A stretch of 64,000 nt of DNA from Spirochaetae bacterium HGW-Spirochaetae-3 (GCA_002839315.1 PGXV01000004.1:98787-162786), one strand, 5' to 3'. Shown: positions 7,248 through 61,370, numbered from the stretch's first letter. A program made the numbers and translations. Notes: a model not told the origin generated them from the sequence alone.

Positions 7248-7249
7248 CG

Positions 7250-9934: not shown

Positions 9935-10345
9935 CTACAGGAACAGGATGTTGGCGAACAGGAAGTGGACGAATCCGCTGACGACGGCGACGATGCCGAT
10001 GATGCGACGCTGACCGATAAGGATCGCCTCGACCTTGTCCAGCGCGTTCGTCGTCACGCTTGAATTGGATCTATAGAATTCTAGCAATAGCGAGAAGCCC
10101 GCGGCGATGCCCGCCAAGGACGGGACCAAGTCGCCGATAACGGGAATATCCCCGCGCATCACCGTAAGGAGCTTGAAGAAACCGACGGTCGTGCACAGTA
10201 TACCCACGACGAGCCGGATCGTGCCGTCCTTCAGGAATTCCCGTACGCCGTCGAATTTAGTGCCCTTGGGCTCCGCGTCGATAGCCATGAGCGAATATCC
10301 CGCGACTATATTCATGAGGACGCTCAATAGGTAGAATTGAACCAT
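9935..10345 (-). CDS. Small integral membrane protein, hypothetical
   Basis: 136-aa C-terminal part of track ORF 9935..10660, starting MVQFYLLSVLMNIVAGY, with about four hydrophobic helices. The upstream 105 codons are Arg/Gly-rich and judged non-coding. Confidence 0.6.
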   Translation of the reverse strand: MVQFYLLSVLMNIVAGYSLMAIDAEPKGTKFDGVREFLKDGTIRLVVGILCTTVGFFKLLTVMRGDIPVIGDLVPSLAGIAAGFSLLLEFYRSNSSVTTNALDKVEAILIGQRRIIGIVAVVSGFVHFLFANILFL

Positions 10346-18092: not shown

Positions 18093-18107
18093 TCCCGCGC
18101 GGGACTA
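18090..18107. terminator. Perfect 18-bp palindrome spanning both convergent stop codons (candidate bidirectional terminator)
   Basis: TAGTCCCGCGCGGGACTA. The TAG stop of the NFACT gene and the complement of the clpC TAG stop are the two ends of the palindrome. Confidence 0.45.
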
Positions 18108-29234: not shown

Positions 29235-31157
29235 TCAGTCTAGCACCTGGGCATAGCTAACGCCGGAAATAGAGAAAACGGCGTAGAGGGCTCCGTTCCT
29301 CGACCCTCGGCCCTCGGGCGGCATGACCGCCCCGAAATCGAAGGGCTTCTTCCCGATCCAGACGACCAATCCGCCGGAATCGGGGACGAGGGGCACCGTC
29401 TTGCCGTCTTCCATGACGCCTTCTATACGCCCGTTCCGATAGACGGCCTCTATCACGCGGCCGCGAGGGCTCGTATAGCGGTAAAGGACCGTGCCGTCCG
29501 CGCGAGTCTCGAGCGACATATCGGCAGAACCGTCCCCATCGTAGTCCCAGGACTGAGATCGCGGAACCCCGAGGCCTTCCCGATATTCAAAAAAGCCGTC
29601 TCCGTCGAGGTCGGTCTCGTAATACGCTGGGGCGGGGATTCCGTCTTCGCCGCGGCGCCAGATCCTGCGCGATTCGTAACGGCCGTCCCCGTCGGCGTCG
29701 ACCGTCTCTTCGATAGGCATGCCGCCTCGATAGACCGCGTAACCGATACGACGATACGCGTCCTGCCACCAGGTCCGCGCGGGCTGTCCCTCGAATAGCT
29801 CTACTGTCTCTATACCCGGACCTATTCGCCGGGAGGCGTAGGCGAGGCTGACCGCGCGAGTCTCGGTCGGTAACGGGAGATCGCCGCGAAATACGAAATA
29901 CGGCCCGCCAGGCGCGCCCGTCATGGATTCCATGGACACGAGCGGGACGGGCATCACGGCCGGCCCCAGGGAATACGTCCTCGTCCCGGAATCGTCGGCA
30001 TACTCCAGCGTATCGGCATAGGGCCAGGAGCCGTAGCGTATCGTCACGGTAACGGAGCCGGATACGGCCTTCATGGTCCGCGGTACGCCGGATAAAAACG
30101 ACGATTCGATCTCGGGCTCGCCGTCCTGGTTGACGTCAAGCGCCCAGGCCGCGGGCTGGCCCGAAGCGTACAGGGTCGTAGACTCGGGGATGCCGTCCCT
30201 ATCCTCGTCCCGGGCGATCTCTCCGGAGAAGGAGGAAAACGCCTTGACGAAAAACGCCCTGGATTCACCGCTCGACAAGAGCGCGTAGAGCGTCCGGATC
30301 GACTCTTCGGTCGCCGCGTACCGCCCGGACAACATCTCCCCTACCGCGCGGTCCTCGTCTACGAGGCCGTATTCGAGCGCGAGCACGGTAGCGTCTGCGC
30401 TCGATCGCCCGATGGCCCGGTACTCCCGTACGAGAAGCCGCGACTCGTTCACGGAAGATGCGTACGGAGCCAGGGCTATCAGTGCGTCGGGGTCGATTTC
30501 CTTTATCGCGGCGAGCGCTGCGAATCCGGCGGACACGAGCTCGGCGTCTCCGGCGGACGAAAAGGGACGCTTCGTCGACCGTAGCCACGCTATCAAGGGC
30601 CGTGGATCGACGGGATAGCGGCGGAGCGAGGCGAGCGCGGCGGAACGGGAACCGGCGTCGTCTCCGAGGGCTAGCCTGGCGATCGACTCCACGTACAGAG
30701 CCTCGGCGCTCGGGGGCATGTCGGAGACGAAGCGGAGCGCGTCTTCGGGTCGCCGCGTACGGGCGAGTATGGCCGCGTACAGGAGGCGCGCGTCCTCGGC
30801 CTTATAGAGCCGGAACCCGCCACCCGCCAAGGCTCGCTCCAGCGAGCCGGCGGCCGACGACAGGCTCTCGCCCCCGGAGAGGCCGAGCAATGCACGCAGA
30901 TAGTTAGCGTCGGGATCGGACGGAACGAAGGACAGGGCCTCGTCCAGAAGAGTAACGGCCGCTCCCGCGTAACCGGCCGCGAGCGCGTCTCGGGCGCTGT
31001 TCACTAGGGACGCGCACAGCGCCGCATCGCGCGAGGTCGTATCGGCGAACGAAGGGACGGCAGACGCCAGCGCGAGCGCCAGCGCCGATATGAGCAGTCC
31101 CTTACGCCTCGCTCGTAGCCGGATCGGCGAATCCGAACATAGCCTTGATGTCGTCAT
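29235..31157 (-). CDS. Secreted TPR + Asp-rich (DxDGDG) repeat protein, hypothetical
   Basis: 640 aa. Signal peptide LLISALALALASAVPSFA and an N-terminal TPR-like helical region. The C-terminal half carries repeated calcium-binding-like loops (NQDGEPE, DEDRDGIPE, DADGDGRYE, DLDGDGFFE, DYDGDGSAD). AAGGAG lies ~10 nt upstream of the ATG, inside the ftsH 3' end. Confidence 0.65.
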   Translation of the reverse strand: MTTSRLCSDSPIRLRARRKGLLISALALALASAVPSFADTTSRDAALCASLVNSARDALAAGYAGAAVTLLDEALSFVPSDPDANYLRALLGLSGGESLSSAAGSLERALAGGGFRLYKAEDARLLYAAILARTRRPEDALRFVSDMPPSAEALYVESIARLALGDDAGSRSAALASLRRYPVDPRPLIAWLRSTKRPFSSAGDAELVSAGFAALAAIKEIDPDALIALAPYASSVNESRLLVREYRAIGRSSADATVLALEYGLVDEDRAVGEMLSGRYAATEESIRTLYALLSSGESRAFFVKAFSSFSGEIARDEDRDGIPESTTLYASGQPAAWALDVNQDGEPEIESSFLSGVPRTMKAVSGSVTVTIRYGSWPYADTLEYADDSGTRTYSLGPAVMPVPLVSMESMTGAPGGPYFVFRGDLPLPTETRAVSLAYASRRIGPGIETVELFEGQPARTWWQDAYRRIGYAVYRGGMPIEETVDADGDGRYESRRIWRRGEDGIPAPAYYETDLDGDGFFEYREGLGVPRSQSWDYDGDGSADMSLETRADGTVLYRYTSPRGRVIEAVYRNGRIEGVMEDGKTVPLVPDSGGLVVWIGKKPFDFGAVMPPEGRGSRNGALYAVFSISGVSYAQVLD

Positions 31158-34480: not shown

Positions 34481-35152
34481 TTACTTCGCGGGCTTGGCGG
34501 GCTTGGCGGGCGCGGCGGGCGCGGCGGGCGCGGCGCCCGCTACGGGTGCGGCGGCGGCGGCGGCGGGCGCAGCTACTTCGGCCACGGCCTCGACCTCTTC
34601 GGCCTTCGCGAACTTTACGAGCACGACGACCTGATCGGTAGCGGATAGGATCTTGACTCCCTCCGCGTGGACGATATCGCGAACGTGGATCGAGTGGTTG
34701 GCCTCGAGCGCGCTGATATCGACCTCGAACTTCTCGGGCATATCCTTCGGGAAGCACTCTACCTCGATCTCGTGCACCGGGTTCTCGAGAATACCGCCGT
34801 TACGAACGCCGATAGAGCTACCAGTGAGGTGCACGGGCACCTTGGCGCGCATGATGACGCCGCTTTCGACCTCGAAGAAGTCGACGTGCAGGATCTTGCC
34901 GTGCAACCAGTCGAGCTGGCGATCCTTAACGAGGCAATCGTAAGAATCGGTACCGACGTTAAGCTTGATGATGGTACTCTCGGAAACGCCTTCGACCGCC
35001 TTCTGGAATTCCTTGGCGTTCAGCGCTAGCGGCGTAGCCTTGCCGTGGCGGTTATAGACGATCGCGGGAATGCCGCCGTTCTTCCTCAGGTCGTTCAAGG
35101 CGCCTTTGGTGCCGATCTCGCGCGCACCGGCGTTAATGACATGCTGGGTCAT
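34481..35152 (-). CDS. rplY: 50S ribosomal protein L25 / general stress protein Ctc with Ala/Pro/Lys-rich C-terminal tail
   Basis: Starts MTQHVINAGAREIGTKGALNDLRKNGGIPAIVYNRHG (M59 of track ORF 34481..35326), with GAGGAG upstream. Two-domain Ctc-type L25. Tail ..VAAPAAAAAAPVAGAAPAAPAAPAKPAKPAK. Confidence 0.88.
   Translation of the reverse strand: MTQHVINAGAREIGTKGALNDLRKNGGIPAIVYNRHGKATPLALNAKEFQKAVEGVSESTIIKLNVGTDSYDCLVKDRQLDWLHGKILHVDFFEVESGVIMRAKVPVHLTGSSIGVRNGGILENPVHEIEVECFPKDMPEKFEVDISALEANHSIHVRDIVHAEGVKILSATDQVVVLVKFAKAEEVEAVAEVAAPAAAAAAPVAGAAPAAPAAPAKPAKPAK
34488..34572 (-). repeat. 9-bp tandem repeats (GCGGGCTTG x2, GCGGGCGCG x3) plus a GCG/GCC run encoding the L25 tail
   Basis: Read directly from the sequence: gcgggcttggcgggcttggcgggcgcggcgggcgcggcgggcgcggcg... 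Confidence 0.85.
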
Positions 35153-35296
35153 GGATGATCTCTCCTCGCTACTAGGCGTAATGTATCGCGCTGGGACGGC
35201 AGGATTCGGACCTGCGAATAACGGAATCAAAGCCCGCTGACTTACCTCTTGTCGACGTCCCAATGGTACGTCGCCCGAAGGGACGTACGGCGCATA

Positions 35297-35326
35297 GTTA
35301 TACCCTATAACCGGGTATCGTGTCAC
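35297..35326 (-). promoter_or_regulatory. Candidate sigma70 promoter for rplY (GTGACA-N18-TATAAC)
   Basis: The minus strand reads GTGACAcgatacccggttatagggTATAAC. This would give a ~140-nt structured leader upstream of rplY. Confidence 0.4.
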
Positions 35327-50466: not shown

Positions 50467-52392
50467 TCAGCTTCCGCTCTTCAGGAACGCGTCCTTATAA
50501 CCCATCGCTCGTACCCGTACCAACGCGACGCCGCTTTCGTCCCGGGACAGCGGGCCTACGAAGACGCGCCAGGTATCCTTGCCCTTGTCGCTCGTCTTCT
50601 GGATCAGCACGGTGAATTTCTTGCCTACCCCGCTCGCGGCGTCCTTCGCGACCGATTCGCTCCCGAAGGCGCCTATCTGGATATAATAGCGCCCCTTCTC
50701 CAGGGGACCCGTCACGGCGGGAGCCGTTACGACGGGAGCCGTTACGACGGGAGCCGCCACGACGGGAGCCGCCGGAGGAGTCGTTGTTACAGGCGCCGGA
50801 GCTACGGACGCGACGGGAGGCTTGGGCCCGGTCGGCTCTATAGCCACGATATACTCACGCGGCGATTCAAGCGCGACGGCGGGCGCGGGCTTCTCGGATG
50901 GTCCTTCTACATAGGGAGCCGTTTCGGGCTTCTGCTCCGCGGCTTCCGCCAAGGAGGTTCCAAGCCCCGAATCTACGGGTGACGCGGGTGTCTTAACCTC
51001 GGCCCGGGGTTTTTCCATAGCCTTGGCTTCCGCGTCCTCGAGAGCCACCATCGTCTCGGCGGCGCCATACGCCGGAGTCTCGAGCGCGAGCGCTGACGGT
51101 CCTTCATGCGCAGGTAGAATGATCTCGCCCTCGGCGAGGCTAGTAGCGGGAATTTCATAGATAGGCGCATTGAGGCCGGCGAGCACGATTTCGGGAATTT
51201 CATCGGCTTCGAGCTCTGGCCAGACTAGTTCCGGGCTCAAGCCCGAGGGAGTCCTCGAAGGCGCGAGCCTCGCTATGGCCTCCGCACGCTCCGAAGCGGG
51301 CATCGCCGGGTCCGAAAGGCCGTACTCGCCTTCGTACGCGGAATACTCCGGGGCGAGGCGACTCAACGCGATCGCGCCATCGGACGACGGCGCCGACGGG
51401 TCGTACAGATCCACCGAAGCGGAATCGGCGTACATGTGGGGAGCGGTACGAGCCAACGCCGCGGCCCTGGCGTCAGAAACGGGCACGGGATCGGCTAATG
51501 CCACCGAGTGCGCGCGGCCGGAAGGCGCCTTCGGGCCGTTGGTCGAGATTTCCGGCCTTACGGCCGGCGCTTCGTATCGCTTCGGCGCGAACGATGGCTC
51601 GACGCGTATCGGCGTCTCGTCGGGCTCGGGCACGAGTATGGATACGGCCTCGGGCGCGGGCTCGACCGCCGCGGCGACCGCGGCGGGGGCGGATTGCGAA
51701 GGCTCGGGCAACTGAGGCAATAGTATCGTTCGAACCGGCTTCGGTTTGGCGCTCACCATAGGCACGGGCGTTTCCTCGGCTACGGAAGTCGGTTCGGCGA
51801 CGGCGCTAGGCGCGGCGACGGTTCTCGATGGCTCTATGGCCTTAGGCGCGGTAGCCGGAGCCGGAGCCGGAGCTACCGGGGAAGGCGTAACGGCCGGAGC
51901 CGGAACCTGCGCTATAGGCGCGGTCGACGTCCGGGCTACGGGAGTGGAACCGGTCGGACCCAGTTCATAGCCGAGCCGCCGTAGCTCCGCCGCTGCCAGG
52001 AGGCGCGGGTTAAGATCCGGATCGTGCGACGATATGGAGCCCGACGACGGAGCGAGTTCGACGGCGCTCCTCGGTTCGGACGCCCTGACCCTGACGACGC
52101 GACCTTGCTGCAGGCCAAGCGCATTCGCCGCCTCGACGGAAAGCATCATGAAGACGCCCGAGCTCTCGAGCCCCCTCGTGACGATCGCCGTTATGGAACG
52201 GCCGTTCTCCAGGTTGACGACTTCTATAGAGGTGTTTCGAGGAAAGGAATTGCACGCTGCGTAATATCCGGACGCCGGAAAGTCCCCGTAAGGCCCCATC
52301 ATCGCGCTTCCTTCCCAGGATGACGCCGAAGCGAGGACGACGACCGCCGTCATGCAGGCCGCTAACGCGATGCTATGCCTCTTCATATCCAT
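50467..52392 (-). CDS. rlpA: RlpA-like (DPBB) lytic transglycosylase with long Pro/Ala-rich linker and C-terminal SPOR domain
   Basis: 641 aa. Signal peptide, N-terminal DPBB-like region (YYAACNSFPRNTSIEVVNLENGRSITAIVTRG), a ~400-aa low-complexity P/A/E/S linker, and a SPOR end (YYIQIGAFGSESVAKDAA...WRVFVGPLSRDE). Confidence 0.75.
   Translation of the reverse strand: MDMKRHSIALAACMTAVVVLASASSWEGSAMMGPYGDFPASGYYAACNSFPRNTSIEVVNLENGRSITAIVTRGLESSGVFMMLSVEAANALGLQQGRVVRVRASEPRSAVELAPSSGSISSHDPDLNPRLLAAAELRRLGYELGPTGSTPVARTSTAPIAQVPAPAVTPSPVAPAPAPATAPKAIEPSRTVAAPSAVAEPTSVAEETPVPMVSAKPKPVRTILLPQLPEPSQSAPAAVAAAVEPAPEAVSILVPEPDETPIRVEPSFAPKRYEAPAVRPEISTNGPKAPSGRAHSVALADPVPVSDARAAALARTAPHMYADSASVDLYDPSAPSSDGAIALSRLAPEYSAYEGEYGLSDPAMPASERAEAIARLAPSRTPSGLSPELVWPELEADEIPEIVLAGLNAPIYEIPATSLAEGEIILPAHEGPSALALETPAYGAAETMVALEDAEAKAMEKPRAEVKTPASPVDSGLGTSLAEAAEQKPETAPYVEGPSEKPAPAVALESPREYIVAIEPTGPKPPVASVAPAPVTTTPPAAPVVAAPVVTAPVVTAPAVTGPLEKGRYYIQIGAFGSESVAKDAASGVGKKFTVLIQKTSDKGKDTWRVFVGPLSRDESGVALVRVRAMGYKDAFLKSGS
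50714..50773 (-). repeat. Four tandem 15-bp repeats (ACGACGGGAGCCGTT-like) encoding (A/V)PVVT units
   Basis: Plus strand: acggcgggagccgttacgacgggagccgttacgacgggagccgccacgacgggagccgcc. Confidence 0.85.
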
Positions 52393-52891
52393 ACTTCCTC
52401 CGCGAAGCGCTTACGCCTCGCAATACGCCGCCGCACGCGGCCGAAATGGCCGAACCGAGGGCTGAGCACGCCTTGTCTATTTCAGGACCGGACGTCGTAG
52501 CGGGTACGGCAACGGGAACGCGGCCCCGGGCCAGCTCCTTACCGTCACGTACTCGTACGAGGCGGTAGCTGCATTCGGGGACCGGCGTCCCCTGGCCGTA
52601 TTCGGCGAGGACGACGATGACGTAATCTATCAGGCCTTCTACCGAGGCGCTCCCCGGGGCGTAGCCCAGGAAGGATTCACGGTCGCCGAGGACGGGCCTC
52701 GAATTCGTTCCTATCAATCCGGAATCGAAAAGGCCGTCGAGGACTCCGGAGATGACGAGCTCGGACGAGCGGGTAGCGGCATACGCGCCGTCGAACGCGG
52801 TTTCGACCAGTGCGACCTCGACCGTCTGCGCATATAGCGGAACGATAGCCGACGCAAGCGAGAGAATGGCCGTCATTGCTAGACTCTTCAT
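52373..52891 (-). CDS. Secreted hypothetical protein
   Basis: Probable start MKSLAMTAILSLASAIVPLYAQ (M8 of track ORF 52373..52912). Its 3' end overlaps the rlpA start by 20 nt. No family recognised. Confidence 0.55.
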   Translation of the reverse strand: MKSLAMTAILSLASAIVPLYAQTVEVALVETAFDGAYAATRSSELVISGVLDGLFDSGLIGTNSRPVLGDRESFLGYAPGSASVEGLIDYVIVVLAEYGQGTPVPECSYRLVRVRDGKELARGRVPVAVPATTSGPEIDKACSALGSAISAACGGVLRGVSASRRKYGYEEA

Positions 52892-53072
52892 CGTTCGTAT
52901 CCTTTTCCTCATTATCTATCGGCCGTCTTTTGGAGTAGATTTAGCCGTATCGATAGTCGGCAGGCGTTAATCCGCCGACCGAGGGGCTTATTGCCGTTGC
53001 GCTCGTCTTCGTGATAGTTTTTTCTTCCGTCCGACGATCGTTCCGGGCGGCGATTGCGGAGGATTGCTGTCT

Positions 53073-53633
53073 ATGGACTACTATGCCGTACAGGTATGGA
53101 CGGGCAAGGAAGACGAATTCGCCGAGCGCATGGCGTCGGTTCCGGGTATGGAATCGAGAGCATTGGTCCCGAAGCGCTCTTTGCCGATCAAGCGCGGCGG
53201 CAAGACACGGAATGAGGAACGGCCGCTATTCCCAGGCTACGTCTTCCTGGCGGTTGACTCCGGGGAGCTGAACCGCGAACAGCGATGGGCCCTCCGTTCG
53301 ACGAGGTTCTACGTAAGGACCCTACCGTCGTCAACCGAGCCTCGGCCGGTCAAGGAGAAAGACCGTAGGCTCCTCGCCCACTTCATGTCGTTCGGAAAAG
53401 TTGCCGATATTTCGAAGGTACGCTTCGACGAAGACGATCGCATCGTCGTGGTCGAAGGTCCGCTCAAGGATCTCGAAGGCCTGATCGTAAAGGTCGACAT
53501 CCGCAAGCGCCGGGCCAAGATTCGCCTGGACATGTGCGAGAACTCATTCCTCGTCGATTTGGGTTTCGAGATTCTCGATAGAAAAGCGAAAGGATCCGGC
53601 ATCGACGATGGGCAGCAATCCAGACAATCCTAG
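53073..53633 (+). CDS. Specialised NusG paralog (LoaP/UpxY-like transcription antiterminator)
   Basis: NGN domain (YYAVQVWTGKEDEF...PLFPGYVFL) plus KOW (IVVVEGPLKDLEGLIVKVDIRKRRAKI). First gene of a polysaccharide-type operon. GGAGGA upstream. Confidence 0.8.
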   Translation: MDYYAVQVWTGKEDEFAERMASVPGMESRALVPKRSLPIKRGGKTRNEERPLFPGYVFLAVDSGELNREQRWALRSTRFYVRTLPSSTEPRPVKEKDRRLLAHFMSFGKVADISKVRFDEDDRIVVVEGPLKDLEGLIVKVDIRKRRAKIRLDMCENSFLVDLGFEILDRKAKGSGIDDGQQSRQS

Positions 53634-55095
53634 GGTTTATATCATCGGGGCCGGCTTCGCCGGTCGCGGTATAGCGCGGGAGATACGCGAAAAATCGGTA
53701 TTCGGGTCAATCGTGGCCTTTCTCGACGACGACGAGGCCAAGGTTGGTCGGAGAATAGACGGAGTCCCGGTACTCGGCCCCATCAAGGACGTCGTGCGCC
53801 TTCTCGCGCGGGCTCCGGCGGACGAGGCGATCATCGCGATGCCGAGCGCCTCAAGGGAATTCCTCCGCGAGCTTTACTACCTTCTAAAGGACGCGGGCTT
53901 CTCGCGCATACGCATCGTTCCGGACATCGCGCAGATCGTAGAGGGCGACGCCCACCTGGTCCAGGCGCGCGAGATAGACCCGCAGGATCTGCTCGGGCGC
54001 AGTCCCGTCGCGATAGGGCTGAAGAAAAGCATCCAGTGGCTAGCCGGCAAGCGCGTCATCGTGACGGGGGCGGGCGGTTCTATAGGCTCCGAGCTTTCCC
54101 GCCAGCTGCTTTCGGCGGGAGTGGAACGTCTCTACCTCTTCGGCCACGGAGAGAATTCCATATACCAGATAGACCGCGAGCTCAGGGCGTTACAGGCCGG
54201 GGGCGTCGGCGTCTCCACGGCCATCGTACCCGTCATAGGGGAGCTCAAGGACCGCGACTATATGACCAACGTCTGCAGGCGGCTCAAGGCCGACGTAGTA
54301 TTCCACGCCGCGGCGTACAAGCACGTGCCGATGATGGAGGCAAACACCGTCGCCGCTATAGACAATAACGTGTTCGGCACGAAGAACCTCGTCGACGCCT
54401 GCCTAAGCTCGGGCGTCAAGCGCTTCGTACTCGTAAGCACCGACAAGGCCGTCGAACCGCTCTGCGTCTACGGCGCGTCGAAGTACATTTCGGAGCGCAT
54501 CGTCATGGACGCGCAGGCGAAGGCGGGGCGGGACGAGCATTATATGGTGGTCCGCTTCGGAAACGTGCTCGGCTCCCGTGGATCGATACTGCCGCTCTTC
54601 ATGCAACAGGTGTCGCGCGGCGGGCCGGTAACCGTTACCGATCCTCTCGCCAGCCGGTTCTTCATGACGATACCCGAGGCATGCTCGCTCGTTCTCAAGG
54701 CCGGCGGCGTCGGCTCGGGGGGGGAATCGTATCTTTTGGACATGGGCGACCCCATCCTGATACGGGAGCTCGCCGAACAGGTCATCCGATTCTCCGGGTT
54801 CGTTCCCTACGACGATATAAAGATAGACTATATCGGGCTCCGTCCGGGAGAGCGGCTGGCGGAGAAGCTCTTCGCCGACGACGAGAGCCTCGAACCGACC
54901 GATTTCCCGAGGATTAACAGGCTGGAGCGCGGCGGGAGCGGGTTCGACCTCGCCAAGGCGCTCGAAGCGCTCGGCCCGATATGCTTCCTCGACGGGTCGA
55001 GGCCTGAATCGTACCGCAATCGCAGGTTGCTCAGAGGGGCGCTGAGATCATTCGTACCTACGGTAGAGGAGACTCAAGATGAACCGGAATACTGA
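53608..55095 (+). CDS. CapD/PglF/WbpM-type nucleotide-sugar 4,6-dehydratase (soluble form)
   Basis: 495 aa. N-terminal Rossmann-like domain (VYIIGAGFAGRG) and SDR core VTGAGGSIGSEL...YGASKYISE. Confidence 0.85.
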   Translation: MGSNPDNPRVYIIGAGFAGRGIAREIREKSVFGSIVAFLDDDEAKVGRRIDGVPVLGPIKDVVRLLARAPADEAIIAMPSASREFLRELYYLLKDAGFSRIRIVPDIAQIVEGDAHLVQAREIDPQDLLGRSPVAIGLKKSIQWLAGKRVIVTGAGGSIGSELSRQLLSAGVERLYLFGHGENSIYQIDRELRALQAGGVGVSTAIVPVIGELKDRDYMTNVCRRLKADVVFHAAAYKHVPMMEANTVAAIDNNVFGTKNLVDACLSSGVKRFVLVSTDKAVEPLCVYGASKYISERIVMDAQAKAGRDEHYMVVRFGNVLGSRGSILPLFMQQVSRGGPVTVTDPLASRFFMTIPEACSLVLKAGGVGSGGESYLLDMGDPILIRELAEQVIRFSGFVPYDDIKIDYIGLRPGERLAEKLFADDESLEPTDFPRINRLERGGSGFDLAKALEALGPICFLDGSRPESYRNRRLLRGALRSFVPTVEETQDEPEY

Positions 55096-56266
55096 TTTTA
55101 TCGCCTTCGCCAGGCCCTCCCTGGGGGAGGAAGAAGAGGAAGCGGTCCTTCGCGTCCTGCGTTCCGGTTGGTTGACGACGGGCTCGGAGACGCTCTCCTT
55201 CGAGAGGGAATTCGGGGAATTCGTCGGAACGCCCCACGCGCTGGCGGTCAACTCGGCGACGAGCGGCCTCCATCTGGCGCTCGAGGCCATCGGGATAGGC
55301 CCGGGGGACGTCGTCGCGACCAGCCCCTACACCTTCACGTCGACGGCGGCCGTCGTAAGGCATCTCGGCGCCGAGGTAGCGTTCTGCGACGTAGCCCCGG
55401 GGTCGTATAACATCGACCTCGACTCCCTGGGCAGGCTTCTGTCGACGACGAAGAACTGCCGCGCCATCATAGCCGTCCATGTGGGCGGCCTTCCCTGCGA
55501 CATGCGATCGATACGGGCCCTCGCCAAGCGCTACGGCTGCGCGCTCGTCGAGGACGCGGCCCATTCGTTCCCTTCCGTCACCGAGGAAGGATACGCCGGG
55601 ACTCTCGGCGACGTCGGCGTTTATTCGTTCTACGCGACCAAGACGATCACTACCGGAGAGGGAGGGATGCTGGTCACGAAGGACGATCGCGTCGCCGCCA
55701 GGGCCGAGAAAATGCGCATGCACGGGTTCGATCGCGCCGCCTGGGACCGCTATACGGCCAAGAAGGCCTCGTGGCGCTACGCCGTGACGGAAGCCGGCTT
55801 CAAGTACAACATGCCGGACCTGCTCGCCGCCATAGGTCGCGTCCAGCTCAGGAAGGCGAACCGTTTCCTGGAGGAGCGGCGAGCTATCGCCGAGGTATAC
55901 GACGCGGCGTTCTCCGGCGTCCCGGGCCTCGAGTTACCTCCGCGCGGCGAGGGCCATGCCTGGCACCTCTACTCCCTGAGGACGAGGAGCGACAGGGGCG
56001 GCGTCGCCCGCGACGACCTCGTCGAGGCGCTCTCCGAACGCGGCGTCGGTTCGTCCGTGCACTTCATCCCGCTCCATACGATGCCGTACTACGCGGAGCG
56101 CTATCGGCTAACGCCCGAATCCTTTCCTAACGCCAGCTCGATGTTCGAGCGGACGCTCAGCCTCCCGATATGGCAAGGCATGGGCGTCGGCGTAGCTGAG
56201 CGCGTCGCCGAAGCGGTCTTGGAGATTACCGGAGTACCCGGATCGCATTCAAGGCGCGATGTATGA
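55079..56266 (+). CDS. DegT/DnrJ/EryC1/StrS family PLP-dependent sugar aminotransferase
   Basis: 395 aa. LTTGSETLSFEREF, VEDAAHS and SFYATKTITTGEGGM (PLP lysine motif). Confidence 0.9.
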   Translation: MNRNTDFIAFARPSLGEEEEEAVLRVLRSGWLTTGSETLSFEREFGEFVGTPHALAVNSATSGLHLALEAIGIGPGDVVATSPYTFTSTAAVVRHLGAEVAFCDVAPGSYNIDLDSLGRLLSTTKNCRAIIAVHVGGLPCDMRSIRALAKRYGCALVEDAAHSFPSVTEEGYAGTLGDVGVYSFYATKTITTGEGGMLVTKDDRVAARAEKMRMHGFDRAAWDRYTAKKASWRYAVTEAGFKYNMPDLLAAIGRVQLRKANRFLEERRAIAEVYDAAFSGVPGLELPPRGEGHAWHLYSLRTRSDRGGVARDDLVEALSERGVGSSVHFIPLHTMPYYAERYRLTPESFPNASSMFERTLSLPIWQGMGVGVAERVAEAVLEITGVPGSHSRRDV

Positions 56267-58326
56267 AAAACGCTCCGGCGAGCAGGCTACCGTCGATTTC
56301 CCGCCTCTCCGACTTTCCGAGGATGGAAGCGGTATACGTCGGGACGGTCCGCTCGCCGGTATCACGCGGCACAGTCGTGTCGATGAGCCTACCGCACTTG
56401 CCCCGCGAATATAGAAGCATCACGGCAGACGACATCCCCGGCGCCCGGTTCCTGGACGTCAACGGCGCGTCCGTGCCGGTACTCGCGTCGGGAAGCGTAG
56501 CGTATAAGGGAGAGCCCCTCGCTCTGATCGTCGGTCCCGACAAGCGCAAGGTCGCCGCGGCCATCGAGATGACCAGGGTGAGGGTCGACGAGGCGGCGGC
56601 CGAATACTCCTTCGAAACCTGCGACTCGTCGCGAGTCGCCGCCGGAGAGCGATTCGAATCAGGCGACGTCGAGTCCGCGTTCAAGGCGGCCGCGCGCGTA
56701 GTGGAGGGCGACTACCGCGTCGGTCCGCAGGATCATTACTATTCCGAGCCCCAGGGCTCGGCGGCAGCCTACGATTACGACAAGCTCGTCGTTTTCTCGT
56801 CGACGCAGTGGCCGTTCCACGTCAGGGACGCGGTAGCCGCGACGCTTGGCGTCAAGAAGGACGAGGTCATCGTCCGCCCGACGCTCCTCGGTACTCATCT
56901 CGACGGCAAGCTATGGTACCCTTCCCTGCTCGCATGCCACGCTTCGCTCGCGGCGGTCATCTGCGGCCGGCCGGCGATGATCCTCCTCTCCCGGAAGGAG
57001 GATTTCCTGTATACGACCAAACGCGCGCCGATACTCGCATCGTACCGGGCCGGCATGGACGAATCGGGGCGGCTCGTCGCGCTCGACGCGAGGATCATGG
57101 TCAACTTCGGAGCGTACGCCCCCTTCGCGGATCGTATTATCGGCCGGTCGATGCGCTCGGCGGCCGGAGGCTACGCCTGTCCGAATGTCAGGATCACCGC
57201 GAAGGCCGTCATAACGGACCTGCCGCCGATGGGAGCGTTCGTGGGCCTCGGCACCGGACCCGTGACGTTCGCCGTCGAGCGCCTCGCGGAAGACTGCGCG
57301 TCGGCCGCCGAACAGGACCCTTCCGAATGGAGATCCGCCAACGCCGCCGGCAGGAATGATTCGACGCTCGGCTCTCCGCTCAAGAAGGCGGCGCCCTACG
57401 ACGCCCTCGCCGAGCGCCTGCTGGCGATGAGCGACTATCCGCGCAAGCGATCGTCGTTCGAGCTGATACGCAAACGGCGAGCCGATCCTTCGGCGGTCCC
57501 CGGATACGGCATCGGCCTGGCGTTTGGCCCCCAACTATCGGCCAACGTATTCGGCCGCGACGGTTCCGAGTCGCCCTCCGTCGAGGTTACACTAACGAAG
57601 GATTCCTCGTTGATCATCCAGACCAGCCTCATTCCGGGATCGCGATCGACGGCCGCTATCTGGAAGGAACTAGCCGCCGCTCCGCTCGGCCTGCATCCCG
57701 ACTCGGTAACCATCATGTCCTCGGGAACGGATACCGTTCCCGATTCTGGCCCGGACGCGCTATCCAGGAATATCACCGTCGTGACCAAGCTGATAGAATC
57801 GGCGGCGACCGGCCTCGCGTCGAAGCGTTTCAGGGAGGCGCTGCCCATAACCGTAAAAAAGACGTCGCGGGCGCGAAGGTCGAAGGCGGCGCCCGTGTCC
57901 CCGCTCGATGACTCGTCCTGGGGCGGCGCGGTAGTAGAGATGGAACTGGACGCGGTAGACGGCCGCCCGATGGTCCGCGGCGTCTGGCTGGCGATAAAGG
58001 CCGGCAGGATCCTGTCCAGGAAGGCCGCCGCAACGTCCGTCGAGCATGACGCGGCGCTCGCCCTGGGGCTCTGCCTCGGCGAGCGGCTCGACCTGTCCTC
58101 GGGCCCGGCGGGAGAGGACGCATTGCACCAGTATCGCCTTCCCCGAATCAAGGATATTCCAAACATCTCGGTCGAATTCATAGAAGACGATTCCGAGCCG
58201 CGAGGCCTCAGCGAGCTCGCCTGCGCGCTGGTACCGCCGGCTTTCGCCAACGCGCTTAGCCAGGCCCTCGACGCTCCATGGAATACCATGCCGCGGGTCG
58301 ACGAAGAGTCGGGAGACGGCGGATGA
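56263..58326 (+). CDS. Xanthine dehydrogenase/aldehyde oxidase family large subunit homolog with divergent Moco motifs
   Basis: 687 aa. a/b-hammerhead (ADDIPGARF..VAYKGEPLALIVG) plus the Ald_Xan_dh_C2 pattern (FSSTQWPF..., SRKEDFLYTTKRAP, PPAFANAL). ATGA overlap with the degT-like stop. Confidence 0.75.
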   Translation: MKNAPASRLPSISRLSDFPRMEAVYVGTVRSPVSRGTVVSMSLPHLPREYRSITADDIPGARFLDVNGASVPVLASGSVAYKGEPLALIVGPDKRKVAAAIEMTRVRVDEAAAEYSFETCDSSRVAAGERFESGDVESAFKAAARVVEGDYRVGPQDHYYSEPQGSAAAYDYDKLVVFSSTQWPFHVRDAVAATLGVKKDEVIVRPTLLGTHLDGKLWYPSLLACHASLAAVICGRPAMILLSRKEDFLYTTKRAPILASYRAGMDESGRLVALDARIMVNFGAYAPFADRIIGRSMRSAAGGYACPNVRITAKAVITDLPPMGAFVGLGTGPVTFAVERLAEDCASAAEQDPSEWRSANAAGRNDSTLGSPLKKAAPYDALAERLLAMSDYPRKRSSFELIRKRRADPSAVPGYGIGLAFGPQLSANVFGRDGSESPSVEVTLTKDSSLIIQTSLIPGSRSTAAIWKELAAAPLGLHPDSVTIMSSGTDTVPDSGPDALSRNITVVTKLIESAATGLASKRFREALPITVKKTSRARRSKAAPVSPLDDSSWGGAVVEMELDAVDGRPMVRGVWLAIKAGRILSRKAAATSVEHDAALALGLCLGERLDLSSGPAGEDALHQYRLPRIKDIPNISVEFIEDDSEPRGLSELACALVPPAFANALSQALDAPWNTMPRVDEESGDGG

Positions 58327-58808
58327 TCGTCGAATTCATCCTGAACGGCGAGGATGTCAGCCTCAAGGCGGATCCGCTCGAGCGACTATCCGACCTGCTG
58401 CGGGATCGGTTCGGACTCTCAAGCCTCATGAGCGATTGCCTGGAAGGCATCTGCGGGAAGTGCGTCGTCTTCCTGAACGGCAGGCTCGTCAACTCGTGCC
58501 TCGTTCCCGCCTTCAAGGTCAGGGGATCCGAGGTAATCACGTACGAAGGATTCAAGAGCACCGACGCGCACGAAGCCGTGGCCCGAGCGTTCGAGGAAGC
58601 CGGGGTCGAACTCTGCGGATTCTGCGACGCGGCCATGTTCCTGGCGACGGCTTCTCTCCTGGAATCCAACGAGAGACCGACGGACGAAGATATAAAGGAG
58701 ACCATGTCATCGATCTATTGCCGGTGCACGACGCCCTCGATCACGCTCAAGGCGGTACGAGGCGTCATAGAGTCCAAGATGGGCGGGAAGTACGACCGTG
58801 CGCGTTGA
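58323..58808 (+). CDS. [2Fe-2S]-binding small subunit of XDH/CODH family
   Basis: 161 aa from MIVEFILNG. Both cluster motifs are intact: C-x4-C-x2-C-x11-C (CLEGICGKC...C) and CGFC...CRC. ATGA overlap upstream. Confidence 0.85.
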   Translation: MIVEFILNGEDVSLKADPLERLSDLLRDRFGLSSLMSDCLEGICGKCVVFLNGRLVNSCLVPAFKVRGSEVITYEGFKSTDAHEAVARAFEEAGVELCGFCDAAMFLATASLLESNERPTDEDIKETMSSIYCRCTTPSITLKAVRGVIESKMGGKYDRAR

Positions 58809-59640
58809 CGACGTAGCGGCCCCTCAGACGCTCGCGGAGGCCATCTCGATCCTGAAGCGAAGACCTGAAGTGATCCCCTGGGCTGGCGGCACGCTCCTGA
58901 TGACCATCGGCGACGAGGCGGGAGGAGGCAAGCCCGTCTCGGTGCTCGACCTGGGCCGGATACCGGAACTCTCGGTCGTCAGCAGGTCGGATCGGTACCT
59001 GGAGATCGGCGCCTGCGTATCGCTGTCGACGATACTCGCGCTACCGCCCAGCCTGTCGCTACAGCCCCTCAGGTCAGCGGCAGGGTTCATAGGCACGGCG
59101 ACCGTTCGCAACCTCGCTACGATAGGCGGCAACATAGCGTCACGCAATTCATTCATGAGCTGCTTCTCCGCGCTCGTGTGCATGGACGCGGCCGTGGAGC
59201 TTAGGGACGCGTCGGGTTCCCGGTGGTCGGGTATGCACGCACTGATGAACGAGGATAACCGTCCGCGATTCCCATCGGCTTCGTTGCTTACGCGCATACG
59301 CATTCCCACGGCCCCGTGGGACGCCACCGTCCTGTACCGGCTCGGCGAGGCGACGAGCCAGGAACCGTACGCGGCGTCGTTCGCCGCCGCGGCGCGTTTC
59401 GAGAAAGAGATGATATCCGAACTCAGGATTGTCGCCGCCGGCAGGCGCATCGTCAGGGACCGCGCCCTCGAGCTGTCACTCGTCGGGAAGCGTCTGCCGA
59501 TCTCCCAGAAGGACGCCGAGGCAGCGAGGGCGGTAGCCAAGGCGAGGGCTATGGAAGCCGGTTTCGGCGATGGTACTGCCGGGCTCTATGGAGAGTACCT
59601 GGCCGCTTTCCTGTCCGGCGTTCAGGAGGAAGGTCTATGA
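58798..59640 (+). CDS. FAD-binding medium subunit of XDH/CODH family (FAD_binding_5)
   Basis: 280 aa with a GTG start. WAGGTLLM and VRNLATIGGNIAS motifs. Confidence 0.8.
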   Translation: MRVDDVAAPQTLAEAISILKRRPEVIPWAGGTLLMTIGDEAGGGKPVSVLDLGRIPELSVVSRSDRYLEIGACVSLSTILALPPSLSLQPLRSAAGFIGTATVRNLATIGGNIASRNSFMSCFSALVCMDAAVELRDASGSRWSGMHALMNEDNRPRFPSASLLTRIRIPTAPWDATVLYRLGEATSQEPYAASFAAAARFEKEMISELRIVAAGRRIVRDRALELSLVGKRLPISQKDAEAARAVAKARAMEAGFGDGTAGLYGEYLAAFLSGVQEEGL

Positions 59641-60467
59641 GCGGCGTCCTGTACCTCGTGCCCGTACCGATAGGCGACGGCTCGCCCTTGGACGAATTGG
59701 CTCCCAGGGTAATCCGGACCGTATCCGGTATCAGGGATTTCGTCGTAGAGAACGAGAGGAGCGCCAGGCGCTTCCTGTCTAGGGTAATGCCCCAGGAAGC
59801 GCTCGACGCCTCCCGGCTCCGCATCCTCGACGAGCATACCCGGCCGGAGGACCTCGACGGATTGCTCGAGCCGCTCGTTGAGGGCAGGGACGCGGCGGTC
59901 ATATCCGAGGCGGGAAGCCCCTGCGTAGCGGACCCGGGCGCGGCTCTGGTCGCGGCCGCGTCCCGGGCGGGGATAGTATCGATACCCTTGCCCGGGCCCA
60001 GCGCCGTCCTGATGGCCATCATGGCCTCGGGCCTCGGAGGCCAACGATTCTCGTTCAGGGGCTACCTGCCGCCCGATCCCGCGGGTAGGGAGGCAGCGCT
60101 CAGGGAGCTAGAATCCCTGTCCGCGAGGGACGGCTCTACGCAGGTGTTCATCGAGACGCCGTACCGGAACGACGCGATGGCCGCGACCGCCGCAAAGGCA
60201 CTCGCCGGCGCCACCATTCTCTGCACGGCGACGGGGCTTTCCACGCCTGGCGAGAGGGTGATCCGGATGGAAGCGGCGGCATGGAAGAAGAATCTCCCGA
60301 CGATCGGCAAGACGCCGACCGTGTTCCTGCTATCAGCCGCGGGATCGGCGGGAACGACCTCGCAACCGACGCGATCCGCGCCGCGAGGCCAGTCGCGAGG
60401 GACCGCGCCCGTCAAGGGACGCGGGCGAAACGCCCCGAAGCATACCGCGAGACGGCATGACGCTTGA
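59637..60467 (+). CDS. Tetrapyrrole-methylase-fold SAM-dependent methyltransferase (RsmI-like)
   Basis: 276 aa from MSGVLYLVPVPIGDGS.., with ISEAGSPCVADPG, GPSAVLMAIMASGL and VFIETPYR motifs. Arg/Lys-rich C-terminal tail. ATGA overlap with the FAD-subunit stop. Confidence 0.7.
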   Translation: MSGVLYLVPVPIGDGSPLDELAPRVIRTVSGIRDFVVENERSARRFLSRVMPQEALDASRLRILDEHTRPEDLDGLLEPLVEGRDAAVISEAGSPCVADPGAALVAAASRAGIVSIPLPGPSAVLMAIMASGLGGQRFSFRGYLPPDPAGREAALRELESLSARDGSTQVFIETPYRNDAMAATAAKALAGATILCTATGLSTPGERVIRMEAAAWKKNLPTIGKTPTVFLLSAAGSAGTTSQPTRSAPRGQSRGTAPVKGRGRNAPKHTARRHDA

Positions 60468-60500: not shown

Positions 60501-61366
60501 ATGCAGACCCAAATAGATCTACACGCACAATATGAAAACGTAATCGCATCGATCAACCCGTTCGCTCAGGCGAGGATGGGGCTCAAGCCGGGGCAAACGG
60601 TCGTAAAGCTGGATACCTACAGCATCATATGCGTTCCGTACCGCCTGACGATGAACGGGGCGGTACTGATCGCGTCGTTCTCCAGCGAAGAGCTGTCGTT
60701 CTTCCAGCGCTACGTCAACGGACTCGCCGGGCTGACCCTTATTTTCCAGCCGGGCGGAACCCAGAACCCGCTCAAGATATTCGCCAGGTGCGTCCTCCGC
60801 TCGGTAAGCCCGATGAAGGGACGCGAATCCATAGGGCTCATCGACGTAGCGTTCAAGCCCTGCCCGCCCGACCTCGAGACCATACTGATCGATTACTTCA
60901 TGCTTATGGATAGGCTTAAGGTGGAGTACGACGACTTCAAGGGCAAGCCCATATCGATCAACCCCGACAGCGCCAAGGCCATGGGCTACAATAATTATTC
61001 GATGCTCGCCTCCGAGGGCGCCCAAGCGAAGGTCGCCCTGTTCGCGCTCGCCAGCGACTCCCTCGACTTCCTCGTGCCGATGAACGGGCCGACCCTCGTA
61101 CAGGGCAAGCCTATGCAGATGAAACTGTTCTTCCAGAGCTACCAGTTCACCGTGCCGGGGTCGATAGCGAGCGTAACCACGTTGCAGAACGGGGTGCAGA
61201 AGGCGCGGGCCTCGATACAGTTCTCGTCGGAGCTCGTGTCCATCATCGAGCAGTACCGGTTCGCGGAGCGGTTCAGCGCCAAGGCCGCCCAAGCCGCCCC
61301 GACCTCCCAGTCGTCGGCGCCTCCCGGTTCCATGAAGAGGCCGGCTCCCGGTCCGATCCGAGGCGC

Positions 61367-61370
<4 letters not shown>
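60501..61370 (+). CDS. Hypothetical protein (beta-rich, two similar halves; low-complexity tail)
   Basis: 289 aa with coding-like composition. No catalytic or binding motif recognised. Converges on and overlaps the mfd stop by 4 nt. Confidence 0.55.

Follow-up and report, generated by a model that had tools for sequence, protein, structure and literature searches.

Whether a protein with the fold of a molybdenum hydroxylase large subunit can do without the molybdopterin cofactor (Moco), and what it would then be kept for, is the question raised by a gene cluster of Spirochaetae bacterium HGW-Spirochaetae-3. We analysed a stretch of 64,000 nucleotides (GCA_002839315.1 PGXV01000004.1:98787-162786; hereafter the window), in which the gene for a large subunit of the xanthine dehydrogenase (XDH) family is followed by genes for its FeS and FAD partners (Table 1). 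A sequence-only reading had proposed that the Moco signatures of this protein are eroded and that it is a scaffold which lost or changed its cofactor while its electron-transfer partners were kept. The scaffold proposal is supported by motif loss, synteny, selection and the evidence from Treponema and T. pallidum, all considered below.

Table 1. Genes and diagnostic sites of the LoaP-headed block, in window coordinates
Feature	Position	Strand	Basis
LoaP-type NusG paralog (antiterminator) heading the block; likely true start ATG at 53073	53064..53633	+	
CapD/PseB-like soluble nucleotide-sugar 4,6-dehydratase (Polysacc_synt_2); 26-nt overlap with LoaP gene	53608..55095	+	
DegT/PseC-like PLP aminotransferase; stop overlaps large-subunit start (ATGA)	55079..56266	+	Pfam DegT_DnrJ_EryC1 387 bits
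XDH-family large subunit, 687 aa, canonical Moco-binding motifs missing	56263..58326	+	domains, alignments, predicted fold
T181-Q182-W183-P184; Q182 = bovine Q767 (apical Mo=O contact), kept	56803..56814	+	alignment
G210-T-H212-L-D214-G-K-L-W218-Y-P220 in place of GGGFGGK(E) Moco loop	56890..56922	+	alignment
G-A-F-V327-G-L329-G in place of (A/M)FRG(F/Y)G; Arg to Val, Phe to Leu	57232..57252	+	alignment
I-P-G-S-R-S in place of (T/x)E(M/I)GQG, bovine Q1040 loop	57631..57648	+	alignments
D498-A-L500-S501 in place of T-A-A-S (bovine 1077-1080); Ser kept, A1079 to Leu	57754..57765	+	alignments
IKAGRILSRKAAATSVEH in place of D.G..NP...GQ.EG; S592 for Q1194, only G581 kept	57994..58047	+	alignments
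G648-L-S-E651-L; catalytic-base Glu (bovine E1261) kept in subclade	58204..58218	+	alignment
[2Fe-2S]x2 small subunit, 161 aa; ATGA overlap with large subunit	58323..58808	+	Pfam Fer2_2 66 bits
FAD-binding medium subunit, 280 aa; starts with GTG, overlaps FeS gene by 11 nt	58798..59640	+	Pfam FAD_binding_5 101 bits
RsmI-like 16S rRNA methyltransferase; ATGA overlap with FAD gene	59637..60467	+	
PilZN3-domain protein, frequent downstream neighbour	60501..61370	+	Pfam PilZN3 28.1 bits

Identity of the large subunit and its partners

The open reading frame of the large subunit is real, and the deposited HGW-Spirochaetae-3 protein is 100% identical to its product. Among Pfam domains, MoCoBD_1 (PF02738) matched with 193 bits and MoCoBD_2 (PF20256) with 56 bits (cutoff 27 in each case), the latter over profile positions 12-131 of 283 only, and the Ald_Xan_dh_C hammerhead domain (PF01315), in the N-terminal α/β region, scored 25.3 bits against a curated cutoff of 31.3. 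The hammerhead region has high pLDDT in the AlphaFold2 model, for which the overall pLDDT is 85.4 and the pTM 0.86. Foldseek matched this model to bovine xanthine oxidase (1fiq_C) with a TM-score of 0.85 and to D. gigas MOP with E=4e-51. Over the bovine and R. capsulatus XDHs and the D. gigas aldehyde oxidoreductase (1fiq, 1jro and 1sij), TM-scores range from 0.83 to 0.85 at about 21% sequence identity, the equivalents of bovine Q767 and E1261 being shared. The large subunit belongs to the XDH/CODH (molybdenum hydroxylase) structural family. It falls far under the cutoff of all 13 NCBIfam equivalog models tried (pucD, xdhA/B, CoxL, PaoC, 4-HBCR and others), the best being pucD with 201 bits against a cutoff of 784. 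Several low-confidence segments of the model, such as residues 211-213 of the replaced Moco loop and residues 497-503 (pLDDT <50 in both), coincide with former Moco loops; the fold is intact.

The nearest canonical group, with 450-510 bits to the family profile, comprises PucD/PucE/PucC and the clostridial three-subunit XDHs, such as that of protein P0338 (locus L090). These enzymes have all three Pfam domains and the same fold as the window protein, and the P0338 system has the same gene order (large, FeS, FAD), its subunits measuring 716, 158 and 280 aa versus 687, 161 and 280 aa in the window. The length of 687 aa, which had been thought unusually short, is not diagnostic, as the nearest canonical relatives span 683-721 aa. 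What does differ are the motifs: PucD-type relatives retain GG[GA]FGGKE, GAFRGFG, (D/E)MGQG, GQ(I/V)EG and QCGFCTPG, whereas the window protein has none of them. E. coli PaoABC and XdhABC are likewise three-subunit enzymes with FeS and FAD partners but, unlike the window complex, have every Moco motif. PaoA carries an export signal; the window FeS subunit starts directly with MIVEFILNG and no long N-terminal extension is seen.

The partners had been described as intact, and for the FAD subunit this holds: WAGGT and ATIGGN are present, and these motifs are conserved in 66 partner subunits. The FeS subunit keeps both cysteine sets (Cys39/44/47/59 and Cys98/101/133/135), and the eight cysteines are conserved across 53 FeS partner subunits, but it is not fully canonical. 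Since QCGFCTPG reads LCGFCDAAM, the pterin-contacting Gln (bovine Q112) is lost, L97 standing in its place. The Q..TPG element is not conserved in the 53 partners, and the Gln of QCG.C is retained only in near-canonical members of the clade. The large-subunit gene is followed by the FeS gene in 78 and by the FAD gene in 74 of 80 loci, the remaining loci being cut by contig ends.

Moco-contacting residues site by site

For the register of the large subunit, phmmer was used against R. capsulatus and human XDH and MAFFT L-INS-i with a set of 40 canonical large subunits, and a third alignment was made by MAFFT with E. coli XdhA and PaoC. The register drawn earlier by eye turned out to be right. 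The possibility that motif loss merely reflects a wrong register is negligible and already refuted: the three independent alignments (phmmer with PDB chains, MAFFT with XdhA and PaoC, L-INS-i with 40 canonical proteins) concur, and the strings GG.FG, FRG.G and MGQG occur nowhere in the whole window protein. We found no point in favour of such an artefact.

Just as had been read from the sequence, GTHLDGK stands for the Moco loop GGGFGGK, Val327 for the Arg of AFRGFG and IPGSRS for E.GQG, the D.G..NP...Q.EG motif is replaced, and the C-terminal catalytic-Glu motif is roughly kept. The cofactor-binding Gln has become Ser592, and the catalytic Glu is E651. In the alignments, G210-T-H212-L-D214-G-K216-L217 corresponds to bovine G795-G-G797-F798-G799-G-K801-E802, V327 to R912, L329 to F914, P458-G-S-R461-S to E1037-M-G-Q1040-G, D498-A-L500-S501 to T1077-A-A1079-S1080 and S592 to Q1194, while Q182 and E651 match Q767 and E1261. 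Compared with the bovine Mo-pterin site, G796-G799, R912, F914, Q1040, A1079, Q1194 and Q112 of the FeS domain are replaced, and the substrate residues E802 and R880 have become Leu217 and Ser260. All 40 canonical proteins retain GG[GAD]FG, the Arg, G[QT]G, the Gln of GQ..G, the Q767 equivalent and the Glu, whereas the first four features are found in 0/13 aligned family members; the family has lost four out of six Moco or active-site motifs that are universally conserved elsewhere. The Gly-rich loop in its longer form, GG(G/A/D)FG.K, gives the same counts (40/40 and 0/13) and occurs in 9 of 144 cluster representatives. Nine of these 144 also keep all six features; the remaining 135 have three or fewer, and none has four or five.

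The former Moco loop has been fixed anew in the family as G-x-H-L-D-G-K-L-W-Y-P. Among 115 members, the His is present in 111, the Asp in 114 and the Trp and Pro in all, and the entropy of the loop is 0.46 compared with a protein mean of 1.57. To call the signatures eroded is misleading, because the loop has been replaced by a new motif that few segments of the protein exceed in conservation. The His itself is exchanged for Ala, Pro, Ser or Asn in many clade members retaining D-G-K-L-W-Y-P. Residues 456-463, at the Q1040 loop, now vary freely (entropy 2.23), and the Q1194 segment is variable in the family (residues 579-595, entropy 1.77). Position 327, Arg in 40/40 canonical proteins, is Gly in 47, Ala in 36 and Val in 13 family members. 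As for the residues that are kept, segment 180-184 is among the most conserved (entropy 0.26), and its W183 is clade-specific (85% conserved in the clade, Cys in canonical relatives). An equivalent of Q182 is present in 99 of the 144 representatives and one of E651 in 69; both are lost in Treponema proper. The family consensus at the C-terminal Glu is G-x-G-E-L, at 93% or more, and within the subclade of the window protein Q182, E651 and S501 are each more than 93% conserved.

Distribution, selection and genomic context

The unusual large subunit is real in this genome, but it is not peculiar to it. Relatives are encoded as full-length intact ORFs in at least 170 species genomes, named as Treponematales-type spirochetes and forming a single clade; more than 150 representatives remain at 50% clustering with scores of at least 450 bits. 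In 14 independent close pairs the dN/dS of the large subunit is 0.06-0.23, about 0.1, with similar values for the FeS, FAD and DegT genes, and all three subunits are under purifying selection. A neighbour-joining tree was used to read a gradient of motif loss inside the clade. P0345 is near-canonical and its FeS partner retains QCG.CTSG, P0293 and P0339 show partial retention, and in the window type Q182, E651 and S501 are the only Mo-site residues left. In T. brennaborense and gut Treponema every Moco feature is lost, Gln182 and Glu651 included, and the same six-gene block is kept. Motif loss is thus a feature of a large clade, not random erosion of one gene.

The three XDH-like genes usually form a translationally coupled block with LoaP, PseB-like and PseC-like genes (synteny compared across 80 loci), and LoaP lies upstream of it at almost every family locus. 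The antiterminator scores 147.9 bits with antiterm_LoaP (NCBIfam NF033641; cutoff 125) and also matches Pfam NusG. As in known LoaP-controlled operons, LoaP comes first and the downstream genes overlap in the manner of one long transcript. Known LoaP targets are clusters for polyketides or polysaccharides; to our knowledge, an XDH-like redox module has not been described as LoaP cargo. For the two sugar genes PseB and PseC are the nearest models only, and the equivalog cutoffs are not reached (PseB, TIGR03589, 185 bits versus 408; PseC, TIGR03588, 346 bits versus 423.5). A dehydratase, a DegT enzyme and an FAD/[2Fe-2S] donor also make up the E1/E3 systems (AscC/AscD, RfbH), which resemble the window in logic only. 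E1 enzymes (AscC, RfbH, SpnQ) have His for the PLP Lys and a [2Fe-2S] Cys motif of their own. We rejected an E1-type sugar 3-dehydrase as the identity of the DegT gene, and the analogy is unsupported, because its product keeps the Schiff-base Lys (SFYATK) and scores best as PseC, with RfbH far lower (151 bits, cutoff 423).

The association with sugar genes is not universal: at L052 and L080 they are absent and LoaP is directly upstream of the large subunit, and at L073 and L078 the XDH-like genes lie apart from them. The XDH-like module is retained where its flanks are rearranged. The XDH-like genes also evolve faster, their median identities to the window over 59 loci being 43, 50 and 39% compared with 69% for the dehydratase and 64% for the aminotransferase. 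Of the 59 loci carrying all six core genes, 40 have the RsmI-like gene downstream, which makes it a common but not constant neighbour, and 36 have the PilZN3 gene.

Genes for Moco supply are missing from this context. Tblastn with the MoCF_biosynth, XdhC_CoxI and MOSC proteins neighbouring P0338 and with E. coli PaoD found no XdhC, MoeA/MogA-type or MOSC genes in 1.47 Mb made up of the window and 87 family loci, and among the larger ORFs of the 64-kb window Pfam profiles detected no moa, moe, mob, mod or xdhC. In contrast, P0338 sits beside amidohydrolase, MoCF_biosynth, XdhC_CoxI and MOSC genes, and PaoABC adjoins the Moco chaperone gene paoD, of which no PaoD/XdhC homolog was seen near any family locus searched. 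Some hosts of the family presumably do make Moco, for example T. primitia with its formate dehydrogenases. In T. pallidum, TPASS_0079 and TPASS_0081 are tabulated as XDH Mo-domain and FAD-domain proteins (PMC5951579); this species is classed among the obligate host-restricted bacteria, and Moco-biosynthesis COGs are among the 100 COGs missing from all such bacteria studied (PMC2688493). The T. pallidum link consists of a published table and synteny, not of aligned sequence. A PilZ protein, TPASS_0086, is found near the T. pallidum XDH-like genes (PMC5951579).

Competing explanations and a possible role

We consider it fairly probable that the window encodes a Moco-free, XDH-derived FAD/[2Fe-2S] complex, which lost its Mo-binding residues in one spirochete clade and retained its large subunit. 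Such a complex would descend from a bona fide three-subunit molybdoenzyme of the xanthine dehydrogenase type, and we infer that it carries no bound Mo or W. Electrons may pass from FAD through one [2Fe-2S] cluster to the other, and the large subunit may persist as the platform on which the FeS subunit is assembled. Retention of the proximal [2Fe-2S] cluster would be puzzling next to a large subunit devoid of redox sites.

That an Mo- or W-pterin is still bound through re-wired contacts, H212 and D214 replacing the Gly-rich loop in a conventional hydroxylase with an unusual substrate, seems to us quite unlikely. It would agree with the conservation of the metal-adjacent Q182, S501 and E651 in the subclade, with the existence of the near-canonical P0345 and with the preservation of the entire electron-transfer chain; conservation of these three residues would be surprising if the pocket were empty, and is compatible with a non-canonical Moco or some other cofactor. 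However, in bovine XDH the pterin packs against the Gly-rich loop, and here His and Asp side chains take the place of loop G797 and G799. R912, Q1040, Q1194 and the FeS-subunit Q112 are lost together, the Q1040 and Q1194 segments vary freely, and the accessory genes found beside the canonical relative are not nearby. Moreover, sister lineages lose Q182 and E651 as well yet retain the operon, and the T. pallidum listings (PMC5951579, PMC2688493) also speak against a retained pterin.

There is a modest chance that the cavity instead houses a different redox centre or catalytic metal, with H212, D214, E651 and Q182 as ligands, which would make the protein a new oxidoreductase and not a mere shuttle. 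The replacement loop is conserved like an active site, keeping the proximal [2Fe-2S] cluster is sensible only if electrons go somewhere nearby, and His, Asp and Glu commonly ligate metals. Against this, H212 is exchanged in many members that keep the rest of the loop, and all four ligand residues are gone in Treponema proper, which rules out a function of this kind for the clade as a whole. Finally, loss of the catalytic motifs and the low identities of the XDH-like genes relative to the sugar genes would be expected of a decaying operon remnant, on its way to becoming a pseudogene and itself without function. This is very improbable and already contradicted by the dN/dS of about 0.1 in the 14 pairs, by the intact full-length ORFs across the clade and by survival of the module through flank rearrangement and, as reported, in the T. 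pallidum genome of 1.1 Mb (PMC5951579).

Returning to the Moco-free complex, the former cofactor cavity may have been rebuilt in the subclade of the window protein as a new putative ligand site, in which H212, D214, W218 and Y219 join Q182 and E651 of the original site; W183 and W467, both specific to the clade, may occupy the space of the pterin. It is more speculative that the three XDH-like genes are co-transcribed with the sugar genes under LoaP. If they are, their company with PseB-like and PseC-like genes raises the possibility that the complex serves a redox step in amino-sugar or nonulosonic-acid metabolism, for a flagellin or envelope glycan. The fullest version, a Moco-free flavo-FeS enzyme whose rebuilt pocket binds a new ligand or metal, which acts in a LoaP-controlled flagellin or envelope glycan pathway and which is retained in T. 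pallidum, is unlikely to hold as a whole. For the family in general, conservation under strong selection, with intact partners, in at least 170 species suggests that the large subunit probably has a new, molybdenum-free job.

Fold, motif register and conservation of the large subunit

A protein search matched the large subunit, with full identity, to an entry from Spirochaetae bacterium HGW-Spirochaetae-3 that is annotated as a hypothetical protein. It matches the Pfam domain MoCoBD_1 with 193 bits and, weakly and partially, MoCoBD_2 (56 bits, first half of the profile only); the hammerhead domain scores below the threshold. No NCBIfam equivalog is reached, the top one being pucD at 201 bits versus a cutoff of 784. 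The AlphaFold2 model, built from an input alignment of 21 sequences (pLDDT 85.4, pTM 0.86), superimposes on bovine xanthine oxidase with a TM of 0.85 and matches D. gigas MOP with E=4e-51. Taken together, the Pfam domains and the model superposition indicate that the large subunit is, by its predicted fold, a full-length XDH-family member. The length of 687 aa had been read as unusually short; it turned out to be normal, since the nearest canonical relatives have 683-721 aa, and the size of the protein can thus not be taken for a mark of degeneration. The low-confidence model segments 211-213 and 497-503 lie on former molybdenum cofactor (Moco) loops, as do the blocks of low mean pLDDT at about 321-330 and 451-460, and two others, 428-435 and 538-541, lie outside them.

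In phmmer alignments against PDB chains, RRMGGGFGGKE of R. capsulatus XdhB pairs with PTLLGTHLDGKL in the large subunit, and AFVGLG stands opposite AFRGFG, PGSRS opposite EMGQG and DALS opposite TAAS. The same register was obtained with MAFFT L-INS-i for 13 family members and 40 diverse canonical large subunits (XDH, CoxL-like, PaoC/YagR-like, E. coli XdhA and PaoC), which also placed the C-terminal motifs, and re-translation confirmed the coordinates of each motif. The motif calls of the sequence-only reading were therefore correct. Six features are present in 40/40 canonical proteins, namely Q (Q767 in bovine XDH numbering), GG[GAD]FG, R (R912), G[QT]G (Q1040), GQ..G Q (Q1194) and GE (E1261). 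The family retains the equivalents of Q767 and of GE (E1261) together with S501, which corresponds to S1080; the other four features are all gone.

Among 115 full-length family members, GGGFGGK is replaced by a near-invariant G-x-H-L-D-G-K-L-W-Y-P, with H in 111, D in 114 and both W and P in all 115 sequences. The column entropy of this replacement loop is 0.46 versus a protein mean of 1.57; TQWP (0.26) and G-x-G-E-L (0.64) are highly conserved as well. Average or faster drift is seen in what used to be the E.GQG loop (2.23) and the Q1194 segment (1.77). In other words, selection has fixed a new version of one Moco segment and no longer constrains two others, so that the earlier description of the motifs as eroded fits these two segments but not the GGGFGGK loop. 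Positions conserved across the whole clade are mostly structural Gly, Pro and Ala, and the clade-specific conserved residues are W183, W218, W467, R394-K395, R522-F-R..L-P528 and Q667. Each of the three Trp adjoins a former Moco-contact motif, and the three side chains may fill the pterin cavity. As for the FeS subunit, which had been taken as intact, all eight Cys are kept, but QCGFCTPG reads LCGFCDAAM and its Gln is lost. Across 53 partner FeS subunits the eight Cys are all conserved and this Gln is not; in bovine XDH it touches the pterin.

Distribution of the family and gradient of motif loss

One protein search yielded 120 cluster representatives of 675-700 aa with 40-100% identity, their named sources being almost all spirochete metagenome-assembled genomes. 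When 1.84 billion representatives were searched with a profile, the hit at rank 150 still scored at least 450 bits. A pattern scan identified relatives in 170 species-representative genomes; the titles of the 80 loci listed from it are Treponemataceae, Rectinemataceae and Breznakiellaceae, with Breznakiella homolactica RmG30 and Gracilinema caldarium included. Treponema primitia ZAS-2, Leadbettera azotonutricia, T. brennaborense DSM 12168 and Ca. T. faecavium were found to be carriers too. For 14 independent close pairs (NG86), dN/dS of the large subunit is 0.06-0.23, and the FeS, FAD and DegT genes are in the same range. This is a conserved family and not a damaged gene. XDH-like large subunits devoid of Moco motifs make up a clade present in at least 170 species genomes, beyond this single gene, and to our knowledge this clade has not been remarked on before.

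The motifs are lost to different degrees. Among the 144 of the top 150 representatives that were aligned, all six canonical features are present in 9: eight members of the canonical 'SMQCP' outgroup, plus P0345, a large subunit from a marine metagenome. The other 135 retain at most three features (none in 27, one in 57, two in 48, three in 3), and not one of the 144 has four or five. In a neighbour-joining tree, which is without bootstrap support and indicative only, every non-canonical protein falls into one clade, and the partially canonical large subunits P0293, P0308 and P0323 are near its base. P0345 and its partners occupy positions 1241-4523 of locus L092 (TARA ocean metagenome), where DnaE lies downstream as in L094; P0339, another relative, has this downstream DnaE in common with P0345. 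P0345 carries the near-canonical motifs GGGLGGK, YRGDG, DMGQG, Q and GE, its FeS partner carries QCGLCTSG, and it also bears the clade-specific RLR..LPI and SDF.RK motifs. It is a candidate for the 'last Moco-binding' relative.

In T. brennaborense and gut Treponema, Q182 and E651 are gone too (PALWF, TSGSGTNSIWYN, IYLPRAD, KQIGSLV). The series from P0345 through partially canonical proteins and the window type to fully stripped ones would make the path of cofactor loss testable. We also observed that in one host-associated Treponema (L088, 10187-10678) the FeS subunit carries two neighbouring Cys (SPCCV) in place of the C-x-C found in all others, and that Pfam no longer detects Fer2_2 in this subunit. 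In FAD subunits of host-associated Treponema (L087, 10578-11408; L088, 10665-11471), AGGT has become GSCTG or GGCTG, with RN(V/I)ATIGGNI intact.

Operon, neighbourhood and Moco accessory genes

Genes from LoaP to RsmI around the XDH-like large subunit
Feature	Position	Strand	Basis or remark
LoaP-like NusG paralog	53064..53633	+	NCBIfam LoaP 148 bits vs cutoff 125
CapD/PseB-like dehydratase	53608..55095	+	nearest PseB, below cutoff (NCBIfam)
DegT/PseC-like aminotransferase	55079..56266	+	nearest PseC, below cutoff (NCBIfam)
XDH-family large subunit, 687 aa	56263..58326	+	ORF; Pfam, AlphaFold2
FeS subunit, 161 aa	58323..58808	+	Pfam
FAD subunit, 280 aa	58798..59640	+	Pfam
RsmI	59637..60467	+	overlaps in series after FAD subunit

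The window genes from LoaP to RsmI overlap serially, with an ATGA overlap at three junctions. A 160-nt leader (intergenic 52913-53072) precedes the LoaP gene; no Rfam family reaches the gathering threshold in it, and the Rfam scan, with one tRNA in the whole window, gave neither a LoaP leader RNA nor any other RNA near the operon.

When 80 family loci were searched by tblastn with the window proteins, the order LoaP, CapD, DegT, large, FeS, FAD proved to be kept nearly everywhere. For RsmI, PilZN3 and Mfd, frozen synteny may account for the neighbourhood. For the six-gene block it was rejected, because distant members with other flanks (QueA, RuvB or DnaE downstream) retain the block, which is thus a unit beyond frozen synteny. 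In two loci, L052 and L080, LoaP is directly upstream and the sugar genes are absent, and in a third, L078, a Wadjet (JetC/JetD) and Uma2 island is inserted upstream; what never varies is the core of three XDH-like genes. An analogy with sugar deoxygenation of the E1/E3 type, in which an FAD/[2Fe-2S] reductase supplies a dehydrase of the DegT family, was also discarded, since DegT retains the PLP Lys and its score favours PseC over RfbH.

The island of L078, from a termite-gut Treponema, spans 4885-9944 and consists of a JetC-like SMC ATPase, JetD and a Uma2 nuclease just 5' of the XDH-like genes, in the place of LoaP and the sugar genes of other loci. A PilZN3-domain protein (window 60501-61370, +) is found 3' of the operon in many loci. 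Divergent to the operon, and adjoining it in most family loci, is a gene for a 641-aa protein (50467-52392, -) whose C-terminal domain is SPOR and which includes a very long low-complexity stretch rich in Pro and Ala. Of the 59 loci with all six core genes, 33 conserve a 179-aa ORF (52373-52912, - in the window) 5' of the operon; neither this ORF nor the ORFs 29235-31157 (640 aa), 12451-13680 (409 aa) and 7250-8050 (266 aa), all on the minus strand, has a Pfam match at E<=1e-5.

P0338, the nearest canonical relative (locus L090), shares gene order and subunit sizes with the window module, but its neighbours are amidohydrolases, a second XDH, MoCF_biosynth, XdhC_CoxI and MOSC. Searched by tblastn over 1.47 Mb, which comprise the window and 87 family loci, the last three and E. 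coli PaoD gave no match, with L090 recovered as a positive control. A Pfam scan of the larger ORFs of the 64-kb window likewise found no moa, moe, mob, mod or xdhC; the window is otherwise housekeeping, e.g. TamB, SecA, FtsH, a PP-loop (TilS-type) protein, Obg, ArgRS, LigA, CheB and CheR. Elsewhere in it, a ClpB/ClpC-type AAA+ chaperone (Clp_N, UVR motifs) adjoins an ATP:guanido phosphotransferase gene (18105-21729, -), a pairing best known as McsB/ClpC in Firmicutes. The 5' extension of the ribosomal protein L25 ORF as listed (34481-35326) contains the tRNA gene (35191-35262, -; Rfam 53.8 bits), so the true L25 start must be further downstream.

Treponema pallidum and a possible Moco-free module

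In a published re-annotation of the hypothetical proteins of T. pallidum SS14, TPASS_0079 is assigned an XDH molybdoprotein domain, TPASS_0081 is named as the FAD-binding protein of XDH type and TPASS_0086 as a PilZ protein (PMC5951579, PMC4403809). The resulting order, large, (FeS), FAD, PilZ, taken on the T. pallidum side from published annotation only, is the same as here, and PilZN3 here together with TPASS_0086 a few genes beyond the T. pallidum XDH-like genes suggests that the neighbourhood is ancient. TP0080 may be annotated as 'quinoline 2-oxidoreductase'. Further protein searches and cluster look-ups led to T. primitia, Leadbettera azotonutricia, Breznakiella homolactica, T. brennaborense and Ca. 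T. faecavium, with no T. pallidum entry among the matches or cluster members, and the literature text held nothing relevant on TP0077 to TP0081. Going by the published annotation table, T. pallidum apparently retains the module in its minimal genome. The Moco-biosynthesis COGs (MoaA, MoaC, MoaD, MoaE, MoaB, MoeA, MobA) are reported to be among 100 COGs absent in all obligate host-restricted bacteria, the class in which T. pallidum is plotted (PMC2688493). If TP0079-0081 belong to the clade, the module would work without Moco.

The XDH fold and the 8-Cys FeS and FAD subunits are all under purifying selection, and the Moco-binding determinants are lost. This supports in substance the sequence-only reading of a scaffold that lost or changed its cofactor and kept its electron-transfer partners. 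The three proteins may form a Moco-free module running from FAD through one [2Fe-2S] cluster to another, with the large subunit as an assembly scaffold; in canonical structures the large subunit clamps the FeS subunit. Since the proximal cluster is retained, electrons would still pass to or from the former active site, with a small molecule, a metal or a partner protein as the possible donor or acceptor, and in this subclade H212, D214, W218, Y219, Q182 and E651 may constitute a rebuilt pocket. More speculatively, the module might play a role in a LoaP-controlled amino-sugar pathway.

Hundreds of family proteins carry the database label 'molybdopterin-dependent oxidoreductase' or 'xanthine dehydrogenase Mo-binding subunit'. 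Should these proteins bind no Moco, spirochete metabolic reconstructions and molybdenum-usage censuses would be wrong here, for termite-gut, rumen, oral and possibly syphilis treponemes. An XDH-family lineage would then have shed its defining cofactor and kept the FAD/[2Fe-2S] wire; we know of no earlier lineage of the family shown to have done so. For spirochete biology, the three genes stand out as a conserved, strongly selected module tied to the LoaP antiterminator and sugar-modifying genes.
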